Shown in pieces: positions 2,155-3,604 of a DNA stretch of 64,000 nt. A program made the translations under genes and the position numbers. Each line of letters begins with the position of its first letter. Position 1 is the first letter of the stretch. The DNA is taken from assembly GCA_963713825.1 (NCBI GenBank), contig CAVQNG010000003.1, positions 608,001 through 672,000 of the forward strand, written 5' to 3'. The notes below the pieces were generated by a model. It ran no database searches and was not told the origin of the DNA. It saw only the letters and a program-made list of their open reading frames with translations. Source of the DNA: an uncultured Acidobacteriota bacterium. Lineage in GTDB: Bacteria; Acidobacteriota; Thermoanaerobaculia; Multivoradales; JAHEKO01.

Positions 2155-2340
2155 TCAGGCGGGGTCGGTTGGATTCGAGGAGTCAGCACCGGGCTCGGCC
2201 TCGGTGTCGTTTGGACTACATTCCTTCCGGCGACCTGCCGGATTGGGCACCCCTCACGTAGGCACCCCCAGGCGCGGCAGTACCACGTACTGCAGCAGGA
2301 TCCAGCCCACGATGATGCCGATGAAAAGGAGATTATCCAT
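2155..2340 (-). CDS. Candidate small membrane selenoprotein (61 aa, UGA=Sec at codon 29)
   Basis: MDNLLFIGIIVGWILLQYVVLPRLGVPT-U-GVPNPAGRRKECSPNDTEAEPGADSSNPTDPA; ATG at 2340, in-frame TGA at 2256-2254, SECIS-like hairpin 11 nt downstream, final TGA at 2157-2155; missing from the ORF track. Confidence 0.7.
2226..2242 (-). promoter_or_regulatory. Bacterial SECIS-like element
   Basis: Minus strand reads UGA-GGGGUGCCCAA-UCCGGC-AGGUC-GCCGGA: a perfect 6-bp stem starting 11 nt after UGA, with apical GCAGGUC as in the E. coli fdhF SECIS (GCAGGUCUGC). Confidence 0.7.
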
Positions 2341-2738: not shown

Positions 2739-3604
2739 ATGCAAGAGATGTTCTCGAAGCGATGGTTCCGAATCCTCATTGGCGTTCTGGCCGTGTTGGC
2801 GTCGGTGTTCATGGGCCGCTATCAGCGCCAGACAGGGCCTACGTATCCGGTTCCCGTGAGTGAAGAGCTCGCCGGTTCGAGCATCTCCGGCAAACTGATA
2901 CGCACCCACGGCGGGGCAGGAGATGCCCATGTCACGTTGAGCGTCGCGTCCTCCACAGCCGAGGGTGAGGTTCTCTGGCGACGCTATCCCACCAACGAGG
3001 ATTGGGGCCGGCTCCCCATGCAGCGCGAGGGGGGGAGCTCGCGGCAGACCTGCCTCATCAGATCCCAGCAGCGAAGCTCGAATACTCCGTGCGACTGACC
3101 GACAGTGGGCAGGAGGTAGTCCTCCCGCACGGCGAGACGGCAGTCATCCGCTTCCGTGATGACGTACCGGCCTGGGTTCTCATACCTCACATCATTTTCA
3201 TGTTCGTATCCCTGGCCATCGTCTTCAGGGCAGCGTTTGGTGCTTTGCTGGGGGAGGACAACGTACGCCGCTTCATTCCCTGGGCTCTCGGATTCCTGCT
3301 GCCGGGGGGATTCCTGCTGGGGCCCCTCGTTCAGAAGTTTGCCTTCGACGCTTACTGGACGGGCTGGCCCTTTGGTGGCGACTGGACCGACAACAAGACA
3401 CTCGCCGCACTGGTAGCCTGGTTGATCGCCTGGTACATCTGCCGGCAATGGCCTCGCTTCGAACGACTCGCCATCCTCTTTGCCTCCGTCGTCATGCTGG
3501 GGGTCTATCTGATTCCCCACAGCATTCACGGCAGCGAGCTGGATTGGTCCCAAATGGAAGCGGTAGCAACCGAGCCAGCCCCCGAGGCGGCCGACGGAGG
3601 CTAG
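2739..3604 (+). pseudogene. Membrane protein split by a frameshift in a G7 run (true pseudogene, phase variant or sequencing error)
   Basis: ORFs 2739..3098 and 3002..3604 join as ...MQREGG/ELAADLPHQIPAAKLEY... if one G is added at 3029-3035; GGAGG RBS; C-terminal TM helices with the FDAYWTGWPFGGDWTDNKT motif. Confidence 0.75.

Follow-up and report, generated by a model that had tools for sequence, protein, structure and literature searches.

A putative single-pass membrane mini-selenoprotein with an fdhF-like hairpin in an uncultured Acidobacteriota bacterium, and its bacterial family

Closest described systems and layout of the gene

In Escherichia coli MG1655, the TGA of fdhF is followed by 11 nt and then by ggttGCAGGTCtgcacc. 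The window analyzed here, a stretch of 64,000 nt from the genome of an uncultured Acidobacteriota bacterium, contains on its minus strand a small gene with a similar arrangement, and the match to fdhF in spacing and in the GCAGGUC sequence claimed in our initial annotation was confirmed. Both genes have a 17-nt minihelix 11 nt past the UGA, with bases 5-11 reading GCAGGUC, so that the loop G and U are equally far from the UGA. In fdhF-type minihelices the loop G and U stand at positions 23 and 24 when numbering starts with the U of the UGA, and the window agrees with this. The stem of fdhF has a bulged U (ggTtgc pairing gcacc), while that of the window is a perfect 6 bp, and the small protein is unlike formate dehydrogenase. 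Unlike fdhF, the other subtype of the family described below has stems that begin 14-18 nt past the UGA, with loops G(G)UC, GGA or GGC.

The outline of the small protein is like that of the eukaryotic SELENOK and SELENOS, in which a single membrane helix at the N-terminus is followed by a disordered tail in the cytosol, rich in G, P and charged residues, and which have one selenocysteine (Sec) that may pair with a Cys. Pfam holds models for both, and a Pfam-A scan with the Sec form (E up to 10) gave a sub-threshold DWORF match only and no homology to SELENOK or SELENOS. The small protein differs from them in having Sec at the helix end and not near the C-terminus, in a SECIS of bacterial type located inside the ORF, and in being about half the size. 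For SelS, a Sec188-Cys174 pairing is proposed in the available part of PMC3628699.

The family also resembles DUF2892 (YgaP-like, PF11127), likewise a small inner-membrane protein in which a conserved Cys lies close to the end of a helix on the cytoplasmic side, and whose C-terminal tail I-L-R-K-L-G-V-P recalls the I-L-P-R-L-G-V-P-T-[U/C] of the family (hhalign, 16 columns, probability 72%). However, the family has one helix, not two, and lacks the W-C-P motif, and PF11127 matched neither the Sec form (E up to 10) nor 14 Cys forms (E up to 1). DUF2892 is absent from the selenoprotein table of a 2026 review (PMC13188914). Small motif-defined selenoproteins catalogued in the same review are TsoA (LULAxC, NF045695), dual-CXXC (NF041197), KCU-star/DUF466 (NF033934) and FmdB-family UxxU (TIGR02605). 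Like the present family, these are short and have a defining Sec/Cys motif, and their prediction relied on TGA/Cys pairs together with a SECIS of bacterial type (PMC13188914); the U-x3-C spacing of TsoA is close to the U-x4-C found here. However, that table presents none of the four as a membrane protein with a single helix, and none of their models was matched by the Sec form in hmmscan against NCBIfam release 20.0 (E up to 10).

In scans of NCBIfam and Pfam, neither the Sec form nor any of 14 Cys forms scored above a family cut-off, and the few matches were to unrelated families; for the 14 Cys forms against NCBIfam (E up to 1), these were four sub-threshold matches. No single-helix T-U-x4-C or LPRLGVPT-U family is among the 119 families in Table 1 of PMC13188914, a table mostly keyed to Pfam, NCBIfam or other InterPro models and compared in full; the model scans covered Pfam and NCBIfam. 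Literature searches found no work on selenoproteins or SECIS elements in Acidobacteria with a transmembrane topic and nothing linking YgaP with selenoproteins, and there was no selenoprotein title among the matches listed for DUF2892 and DUF302. On bacterial small membrane selenoproteins, the retrieved titles and opening lines of abstracts were those of Ribo-seq annotation studies only, and none of these concerned the family. None of the selenoprotein catalogues or model libraries compared contains this family, which is widespread in bacteria.

The features of the gene are listed in Table 1. The initial annotation had described an ORF with one transmembrane helix ending LPRLGVPT, an in-frame UGA and 32 further codons including a Cys, together with a perfect hairpin starting exactly 11 nt past the UGA; all were found at their proposed places, and the hairpin was borne out base for base. 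Twenty-eight codons precede the UGA and encode MDNLLFIGIIVGWILLQYVVLPRLGVPT (minus-strand translation).

Table 1. Features of the small gene, in window coordinates
Feature	Position	Strand	Basis or detail
Whole gene, putative 61-residue selenoprotein and terminal TGA	2155..2340	(-)	Reads MDNLLFIGIIVGWILLQYVVLPRLGVPT-U-GVPNPAGRRKECSPNDTEAEPGADSSNPTDPA
Start ATG	2340-2338	(-)	Sequence inspection
Predicted single transmembrane helix, residues 2-23	2272..2337	(-)	AlphaFold2 on family alignment
Family signature L-P-R-L-G-V-P-T, residues 21-28, directly before the putative Sec codon	2257..2280	(-)	61-sequence alignment
UGA as putative selenocysteine, residue 29	2256-2254	(-)	TGA conservation; Cys in the same column of homologues
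Spacer from UGA to hairpin, 11 nt, ggggtgcccaa	2253-2243	(-)	fdhF spacer of equal length
SECIS-like hairpin	2226..2242	(-)	UCCGGC / AGGUC loop / GCCGGA; doubles as codons P34-A-G-R-R38
Hairpin, first arm, tccggc	2242-2237	(-)	Perfect 6-bp stem
Hairpin, loop, aggtc	2236-2232	(-)	
Hairpin, second arm, gccgga	2231-2226	(-)	Perfect 6-bp stem
Predicted hydrophilic tail, 32 residues after putative Sec	2158..2253	(-)	Open frame, composition, model
Cys41 (TGT), in tail	2220-2218	(-)	
Terminal stop, TGA	2157-2155	(-)	

Conservation of the UGA and of the hairpin

UGA-aligned homologues were sought and found. Among 61 related genomes, 17 contained strong matches (19 in all), every one with an in-frame TGA, and in a sample of the phylum 75 of 401 genomes had a match, with TGA after …GVPT in 75/75. 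Species genomes were scanned with degenerate DNA patterns of the family motif over the genome contigs, and at least 120 loci had the motif with TGA versus none with TAA or TAG after the same motif. Among the TGA matches listed, 120/120 were confirmed as family members, and the phyla named in their record titles number more than a dozen. Geomobilimonas luticola JCM 17780 is a cultured carrier of the family. True terminal stops are mixed, both in one set (TGA 55, TAG 21, TAA 10) and in another (TGA 68, TAG 32, TAA 14), with a TAA/TAG share of 36-40%.

Cys homologues, which the initial annotation had suggested, do exist as …LG[VI]PTCMSGAC… proteins (e.g. P0004, P0183, P0202 and P0205). Lacipirellula limnantheis I41 is one carrier of a Cys form. 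Cys patterns matched 50 genome loci, 49 of them confirmed family members. The exact window-type motif with TGY (Cys) in place of TGA occurred at 0 loci, and the Cys forms matched their own motif only. The protein sequence is also conserved past the UGA, in two main subtypes: that of the window has T-U-[AG]-V-P-x-P-A-G-R-R, in many cases followed further on by a Cys, and the second reads T-U-[ML]-x-x-x-C, with cysteine forms that read C-M-S-G-A-C. The Cys at +5 is encoded by both TGC and TGT.

The machinery for Sec insertion is present in the source genome, where selA (461 bits), selB (320 bits, or 353 with neighbouring pieces), selD (340 bits) and tRNA-Sec (69 bits) were all found above curated cut-offs. 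The selD gene has its own in-frame TGA, with a G-looped hairpin after the UGA. Since selA is present in 59 of 61 relatives, its co-occurrence with the family is uninformative within this order. Of five Sec-form genomes from other phyla, four had selA above the cut-off and one had it in fragments; it was above the cut-off in two of five Cys-form genomes.

Of 85 distinct Sec forms, 81 had a hairpin with a stem of at least 5 bp starting 10-18 nt past the UGA. Every one of these was G-looped, and together they had 60 distinct 5' arms. By the same rule, hairpins were found in 12/49 Cys forms, in 21/86 regions after terminal stops and, among the matches listed, in 112/120 cross-phylum loci; the Sec forms without a hairpin under this simple rule were 4/85, and 8/120 among the cross-phylum matches listed. 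Sec forms had a mean fold z-score of -1.04, compared with -0.23 in Cys forms and -0.16 downstream of terminal stops. In one helix register of 51 sequences, 67.5% of cells were paired versus 51.4% in shuffles, and there were 62 double-sided changes versus 27.9. None of 500 shuffles reached the pairing or the double-change value, and slid controls were lower. RNAalifold gave no consensus helix from the ungapped alignment of the 51 sequences, because the hairpins occupy several registers. In the window's subtype the stem hardly varies and also encodes P-A-G-R-R, so that RNA and protein constraint are inseparable there.

The genome contains 146,686 TGA triplets, of which 61 are followed by 11 nt and a perfectly paired 6-bp stem that closes a 5-nt loop (15 of the 61 with GG in the loop), and GCAGGTC occurs at the window's offset after 44. 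The hairpin as a single site is therefore not beyond chance, and it is the comparative data that make the case. There is no T-run 3' of the window's hairpin, which is thus not terminator-like. A promoter and terminator scan found nothing at the small gene, and an Rfam scan of 1900-2700 (E up to 10) gave seven matches, all far under gathering scores and none to a SECIS family.

In the available text of PMC1088965, the field criteria for bacterial selenoprotein genes are a TGA in at least two homologues, at least two Cys homologues aligned at the TGA, a stable stem-loop directly past the TGA with G in a small apical loop, Sec machinery and selenium in the protein; set beside this list, the family has a conserved TGA, Cys homologues, a G-looped stem-loop and Sec machinery. 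With sel machinery in the genome, Cys and UGA homologues at this position and conservation downstream of the UGA all found, the Sec reading is supported. We estimate a probability of about 0.88 that 2155..2340 is a genuine selenoprotein gene with a single-pass membrane product of 61 residues, a figure that refers to the genuineness of the gene and not to its function. The case for this putative selenoprotein is comparative or computed throughout.

Protein features, expression and gene neighbourhood

In the AlphaFold2 model, the first three 10-residue blocks, which cover the predicted helix, have mean pLDDT values of 91, 89 and 76, and the tail is modelled as coil with pLDDT 56-60. Among 61 aligned Sec and Cys forms, P22, G25 and the U/C column are invariant, and W13, L16, L21 and T28 are nearly so. 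The N-terminal part is much more conserved than the tail. Tails contain 35% charged residues and 37% P/G/S/T, and their length is tightly distributed (19-34 codons from the 5th to the 95th percentile, 86 members). At least 15 codons are open after the UGA in 86/86 members, versus 70/86 and 52/86 for the other two frames, so that the post-UGA frame is only modestly more open than the alternatives. Thirteen of 85 tails are without any Cys, and a U…C redox pair therefore cannot be universal; two tails bear a CxxC…CxxC extension of their own. More K/R residues lie C-terminal of the helix than before it in 80/85 members. This distribution of positive charge puts the short N-terminus outside and the predicted Sec at the cytoplasmic face directly after the helix; it agrees with the membrane-surface position proposed in the initial annotation and adds that the side would be the cytoplasmic one. 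The nearest ESM Atlas cluster is a 56-residue 'hypothetical protein' (score 0.88), no more than a lead.

Two contigs of a single metatranscriptome study match 2117-2338 and 2114-2339 without difference. These RNA-library contigs, of 222 and 228 nt, span 2114-2339 and not the flanks; they are strandless, and DNA carry-over is possible. RNA runs X19 and X20 cover part of the gene only, at depth 2-3. A variant strain in an RNA run has four changes before the UGA, all third-position and synonymous, and three replacements after it, and its sole indel lies past the second stop. Gene callers list hundreds of 28-30-residue products ending …GVPT, and otherwise miss the gene.

The commonest upstream operon partner is DUF2892, found on the same strand in 22/86 Sec loci. 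An FmdB-type zinc ribbon (Zn_ribbon_8) lies downstream on the same strand in 16/86, thioredoxin is beside 12/86 on the same strand (11 immediately downstream and 1 upstream), and DUF302 is near 11/86, one of the 11 on the opposite strand. At least one recurrent neighbour (these four or one unnamed upstream gene) occurs in 41/86 Sec loci; at the other 45/86 all five are absent from the same strand. Of the 86 loci, 45 were covered with flanks of only about 300 nt per side. Among Cys-form loci, DUF2892 is found in 9/49, overlapping the start of the small gene by 8-20 nt, and DUF302 in 4/49. In the window's own genus none of the recurrent neighbours adjoins the gene, and a permease or a CDGSH/Fer4_19 protein is found instead. 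A complex prediction that paired a DUF2892 protein with the small Cys-form protein encoded in its operon scored 0.01, which counts neither for nor against an interaction. In the available parts of PMC5358917 and PMC5037610, DUF2892 shows about tenfold sulfide induction in one organism, and DUF302 occurs within sox clusters. The recurrent neighbours would point to a cytoplasm-facing selenol/thiol site, and thioredoxin, DUF2892, the zinc ribbon and DUF302 lend some support to the redox or metal-binding function suggested in the initial annotation.

Possible roles and significance

In the mechanism that we propose, one N-terminal membrane helix would be translated before the ribosome meets the UGA at codon 29. 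The hairpin 11 nt downstream would recruit SelB with Sec-tRNA(Sec), a step modelled on known bacterial Sec decoding, and selenocysteine would be inserted in place of termination, after which the 32-residue hydrophilic tail would complete the protein. The sequence features that this mechanism requires are present. The membrane-tethered selenol may then cycle with a Cys of its own tail or of a partner, candidates being the DUF2892 membrane protein, thioredoxin, the FmdB-type zinc ribbon and DUF302, which share an operon with it in many members. On the inner side of the membrane it may deal with reactive forms of sulfur or selenium, or with a soft metal. Such cycling of a selenol with Cys, and the task given to it, are put forward only tentatively. 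Equally speculative is the more specific idea of a functional counterpart of SELENOK and SELENOS, whose Sec would act in a thioredoxin-recycled selenol relay with DUF2892, for sulfide, persulfide, selenide or a soft metal.

Other explanations are possible to very different degrees. The gene might encode only a 28-residue membrane peptide, with the UGA an ordinary stop and the hairpin a 3' RNA element (terminator, stabiliser or regulator). Bacterial Sec insertion is inefficient, so the short peptide is probably made too, and callers already list such …GVPT products in their hundreds. As a full account, however, this is extremely unlikely: although the N-terminal part far outdoes the tail in conservation, TAA or TAG never stands in for the TGA of at least 120 loci while real stops are TAA/TAG in 36-40%, the Cys forms continue into a conserved C-x4-C, the +5 Cys is kept with synonymous TGC/TGT variation, and the hairpin, which has no T-run, goes with the UGA forms (81/85 Sec versus 12/49 Cys). 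A selenium-dependent translational switch, in which read-through of a leader ORF couples ribosomes to a downstream thioredoxin or zinc-ribbon gene and the peptide is of minor importance, is also highly unlikely. The downstream gene does begin about 10 nt or less from the stop of the small ORF, or in frame with it, at several loci, but many members, that of the window included, have no same-strand downstream gene; and the poor conservation of the tail, which would suit a switch, must be set against the strong protein-level constraint on the helix and LPRLGVPT (the four pre-UGA changes of the variant strain are synonymous) and against the Cys forms, which have no UGA and yet retain the architecture and the DUF2892 and DUF302 neighbours.

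A genuine selenoprotein might alternatively use its Sec to bind a soft metal or metalloid (Hg, Cu, Cd, As), as an efflux chaperone or sensor and not as part of a thioredoxin-linked relay. FmdB-type zinc ribbons are metal sites, two tails have the CxxC…CxxC extension, and some loci adjoin the end of an AcrB/CzcA-type RND pump, a P-type ATPase, a ferritin or a CDGSH iron-sulfur protein, but these metal-related neighbours are scattered single cases. Thioredoxin immediately downstream in 11/86 loci argues for a relay instead, as do the sulfide induction of DUF2892 and the presence of DUF302 in sox clusters, as given in the available parts of PMC5358917 and PMC5037610. We consider metal binding of this kind rather improbable.

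If the selenol relay is the right reading, it would give a first mechanistic context for DUF2892, DUF302 and FmdB-type zinc ribbons, and the present account would be the first of a widespread class of bacterial mini-selenoproteins that span the membrane once. The selenoprotein itself, if genuine, has wider consequences. The window's SECIS has the spacing and loop sequence of fdhF, and so E. coli SelB may decode the window's UGA. At only about 50-60 residues, a bacterial selenoprotein anchored in the membrane would be of a kind absent from the 119-family table (PMC13188914), and selenium would gain a link to DUF2892, DUF302 and the FmdB zinc ribbon, all three of them domains of unknown function. 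Counts of bacterial selenoproteins would then have missed a family that occurs in at least 120 species genomes.

Structure of the small gene and its presence in RNA libraries

The ORF list holds a 28-residue frame at 2254-2340 on the minus strand (MDNLLFIGIIVGWILLQYVVLPRLGVPT). Reading the strand through the TGA at codon 29 confirmed every detail of the initial annotation, namely the ORF, the in-frame UGA, a hairpin at 11 nt and 32 further codons with a Cys.

Features of the small gene on the minus strand of the window
Feature	Position	Strand	Basis
Start codon ATG	2340-2338	-	strand reading
In-frame TGA (codon 29)	2256-2254	-	strand reading
Spacer ggggtgcccaa, 11 nt	between TGA and hairpin	-	strand reading
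Perfect hairpin tccggc-aggtc-gccgga	2242-2226	-	strand reading
32 more open codons, then second TGA	2157-2155	-	strand reading
Cys41	2220-2218	-	inside post-TGA frame

The claimed likeness to fdhF also held on the DNA of E. coli MG1655. There, fdhF reads TGA, 11 nt and ggttGCAGGTCtgcacc, and the window gene TGA, 11 nt and tccgGCAGGTCgccgga; the spacing and the seven apical bases (GCAGGUC) are identical, but the bulged U of fdhF is missing from the window stem. The single site is not beyond chance. The genome of the window (G000, 61.3% G+C) has 146,686 TGA triplets on both strands. After 61 of them an 11-nt gap leads into a perfect 6-bp stem closing a 5-nt loop, which carries GG in 15 cases. 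GCAGGTC stands at the window's offset after 44 TGA triplets. The case therefore rests on comparison. The others among the 15 sites that share the window geometry, GG loop included, may include further unannotated selenoprotein genes.

AlphaFold2, run with the family alignment, predicted one helix (residues 2-23; mean pLDDT 91, 89 and 76 in the first three 10-residue blocks) and a coil tail (pLDDT 56-60). Tails in the family are 35% charged and 37% P/G/S/T. In family members the N-terminal flank is acidic (mean 0.18 K/R and 0.93 D/E), the 20 residues around Sec carry 3.0 K/R, and K/R are richer on the C-terminal side in 80 of 85. Because of this C-terminal excess, Sec would face the cytoplasm by the positive-inside rule.

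Two metatranscriptome runs of one study contained contigs of 222 and 228 nt (depth 17 and 12) matching 2117-2338 and 2114-2339 with no difference. Each runs from the start codon region through the UGA, hairpin and tail to a point about 40 nt beyond the second stop and does not reach the flanking genes. The contigs are strandless and DNA carry-over is possible; they show presence in RNA libraries, not translation. Their ends at 2338 and 2339 fall inside the ATG, and if the contig ends were transcript ends, they would imply a leaderless mRNA of only about 225 nt. A scan at the small gene found neither a sigma-70-like promoter nor a terminator.

Conservation of the UGA and of the tail

The read-through protein served as query against the window's genome and those of 60 relatives, translated across stops. 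There were 19 matches (E 1e-9 or better) in 17 of the 61 genomes, an in-frame TGA being present in every one; the unpublished genome G006, included among the 61, contributed none. Translation revealed conservation on both sides of the TGA, W..LLQ..vLPrLGVPT-U-[AG]VPxPAGRR. A profile search of 401 genomes of the phylum matched 75, spanning 48 of 227 genera, and TGA follows …G[VI]x[TS] in 75 of 75. When all species genomes were scanned for the motif W-x7-L-P-R-L-G-V-P-T with each class of codon after it, at least 120 loci had TGA, all 120 being family members; no locus had TAA or TAG, and none combined this window-type motif with TGC or TGT. Among the matches listed (80 titles) were Acidobacteriota (Thermoanaerobaculia, Vicinamibacteria), Myxococcales-type bacteria, Geobacter, Geomobilimonas, Desulfomonilia, Planctomycetota, Nitrospirae, Armatimonadota, Gemmatimonadota, Spirochaetes, Zixiibacteriota, KSB1, Rokubacteria, Anaerolineae and Acidimicrobiia. 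The terminal stops provide an internal control, with 55 TGA, 21 TAG and 10 TAA in 86 members and 68 TGA, 32 TAG and 14 TAA in the cross-phylum set. At codon 29 an ordinary stop would be expected to vary likewise rather than be TGA throughout.

The tail after the UGA is coding. In all 86 members the reading frame continues for 15 codons or more past the UGA, against 70 and 52 for the other two frames, and tail lengths fall in a narrow range of 19-34 codons (5th-95th percentile). Conservation 3' of the UGA takes the form of protein, as [AG]VPxPAGRR in the subtype of the window and as [ML]-x-x-x-C-[DG]… in the larger subtype (U-x4-C), where the Cys codon is TGC or TGT. By the analysts' own codon assignment, a variant strain in one RNA run has four changes before the UGA, all third-position and synonymous, and three replacements after it; the sole indel lies beyond the second stop. 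A second Cys is found at +5 in 51 of 85 members, elsewhere in 21 and is absent in 13. Seventeen of the 114 complete tails among the matches listed (loci L127-L246) end in Cys (…GC, …EC), and 16 of these belong to the window-like subtype, which lacks the +5 Cys; the terminal residue may be an alternative partner for Sec. At two loci (L057 and L239) the tail is extended by a C-x-x-C…C-x-x-C stretch resembling a zinc ribbon; this would be a naturally occurring fusion, reminiscent of the FmdB-type neighbour. At two others (L029 and L178) the small ORF runs without a stop, in frame, into the downstream FmdB-type gene, with 113 codons open after the UGA; a fusion protein is possible, or else a missing stop.

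The Cys homologues suggested in the initial annotation exist. The family profile had 301 and 534 matches in two large protein collections, most of those listed being stubs of 28-30 residues ending in …GVPT, because gene callers end at the UGA. In many of the longer proteins examined the residue aligned with the UGA is Cys, typically within …LG[VI]PTCMSGAC…, and a DNA pattern for this Cys form retrieved 50 genome loci, 49 of them confirmed, mostly in Planctomycetota, Omnitrophota, myxobacterial lineages and Terriglobia. When 61 Sec and Cys forms were aligned together, P22 and G25 were invariant, as was the U/C column. A few full-length database proteins have W, G, R or S at this position, each one base from TGA (P0002, P0003, P0018, P0060, P0124, P0126, P0130, P0139, P0145, P0149, P0152, P0154, P0173, P0247 and P0259); the W and G variants could, we presume, stem from gene calls under codes reading TGA as a residue.

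The hairpin and the Sec machinery

In 81 of 85 distinct Sec forms (those with the in-frame TGA), a perfect stem (5 bp or longer, 3 or more G-C pairs) begins 10-18 nt after the codon; its loop contains G in every one of the 81 and GG in 52, and 60 different 5' arms occur. The same rule picked out a hairpin in 112 of 120 cross-phylum loci among the matches listed, in 12 of the 49 Cys forms and, downstream of terminal stops, in 21 of 86 regions. The mean fold z-score of the 39 nt from +7 was -1.04 for Sec forms, -0.23 for Cys forms and -0.16 after terminal stops (Mann-Whitney p 4e-5, the sequences not being independent). Covariation was counted in one helix register of 51 sequences of the U-x4-C subtype. 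Paired cells made up 67.5% vs 51.4% in shuffles, cells changed on both sides numbered 62 vs 27.9, and the covariation score was 0.387 vs 0.175; in 500 shuffles none of the three was attained, and slid controls were all lower. RNAalifold found no consensus on the ungapped 51-sequence alignment because the hairpins occupy more than one register. In the subtype of the window, RNA and protein constraints are confounded, since the stem CCGGC/GCCGG is nearly invariant and doubles as code for P-A-G-R-R. With no T-run behind it, the hairpin does not resemble a terminator. Across the family, these comparisons indicate that the hairpin goes with the UGA.

The initial annotation had read the UGA as Sec, and G000 contains selA (461 bits), selB (320 bits, 353 with an adjoining piece), selD (340 bits, with one in-frame TGA) and tRNA-Sec (69 bits), all above curated cut-offs. 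This selD, outside the window (G000:C25:839157-840080), is itself a selenoprotein gene, with an 8-bp stem and GGG loop 9 nt after its UGA. In five Sec-form genomes of other phyla, selA was above the cut-off in four and broken into fragments at a single locus in the remaining one; it was above the cut-off in two of five Cys-form genomes tested. Among the window genome and its relatives co-occurrence says nothing, since selA is nearly universal (59 of 61).

Given the conserved UGA, the UGA-linked hairpin with its G-rich loop, the Cys homologues, the coding sequence downstream and the Sec machinery, we consider this a genuine selenoprotein gene with a probability of nearly nine in ten. By the established bacterial SelB mechanism, the hairpin would recruit SelB with Sec-tRNA, and Sec would be inserted at codon 29.

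Neighbouring genes, possible function and novelty

The window gene is solitary between a CitMHS/TrkA-C permease (convergent), replaced in close relatives by a convergent CDGSH/Fer4_19 protein, and a protein of unknown family (divergent). On the plus strand, ORFs at 2739-3098 and 3002-3604 (119 and 200 residues, no Pfam family) overlap in different frames, and in genus relatives the corresponding position is occupied by one long open frame (about 290-335 residues), likewise without Pfam family; a frameshift or assembly error may have split a membrane protein gene of unknown family (2739-3604).

Neighbours were counted at 86 Sec loci with Pfam confirmation, the counts being lower bounds because 45 loci had only about 300 nt per side. 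At 41 loci at least one of five recurrent partners is present, all on the same strand except one DUF302 copy: upstream, a DUF2892/YgaP-like membrane protein (22), whose gene often stops only a few bases short of the small gene; just downstream, an FmdB-type zinc ribbon (Zn_ribbon_8; 16); thioredoxin (12, of which 11 just downstream and one upstream); DUF302 (11, one on the opposite strand); and, upstream, an unnamed protein with a C-E-x-x-P-C motif and about 100 residues (5). The last, found in distant lineages (L072, L089, L102, L107 and L117), has about 95-100 residues and no Pfam family, ends in …G-x-C-E-[IV]-x-P-C… and directly adjoins the small gene on the same strand. Of the 49 Cys-form loci, 9 have DUF2892 upstream, its gene running 8-20 nt into the start of the small gene, and 4 have DUF302 downstream. 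In sequence, the tail of DUF2892 (I-L-R-K-L-G-V-P) is similar to the family signature (hhalign, 16 columns, probability 72%), which hints at a shared origin or a shared contact motif. A passage of PMC5358917 describes an Azospira DUF2892 gene induced about tenfold by sulfide, and a passage of PMC5037610 places DUF302 genes in sox clusters.

From neighbours and motif, we tentatively propose that a selenol at the inner membrane face might cycle with a Cys, either in the protein's own tail or in a partner protein, be reduced by thioredoxin and handle reactive sulfur or selenium species or a soft metal, a reading we hold to be somewhat less likely than not. The main competing idea on function is that the protein binds metal on behalf of an efflux or storage system, and some loci do adjoin the end of an RND pump, a P-type ATPase or a ferritin.

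The Sec form (with C for U) and 14 Cys forms reached no cut-off in Pfam-A or NCBIfam (release 20.0), the few sub-threshold matches being unrelated families. None of the 119 prokaryotic selenoprotein families tabulated in a May 2026 review (PMC13188914) has the same motif or architecture, and passages of the deep-Sep (PMC12013277) and BSepDB (PMC13326102) papers mention no membrane family. We regard this as a new selenoprotein family with a canonical bacterial decoding signal. It is widespread, missed or shortened by annotation, unusually small and membrane-anchored, and is directly testable in E. coli and in cultured Geomobilimonas.
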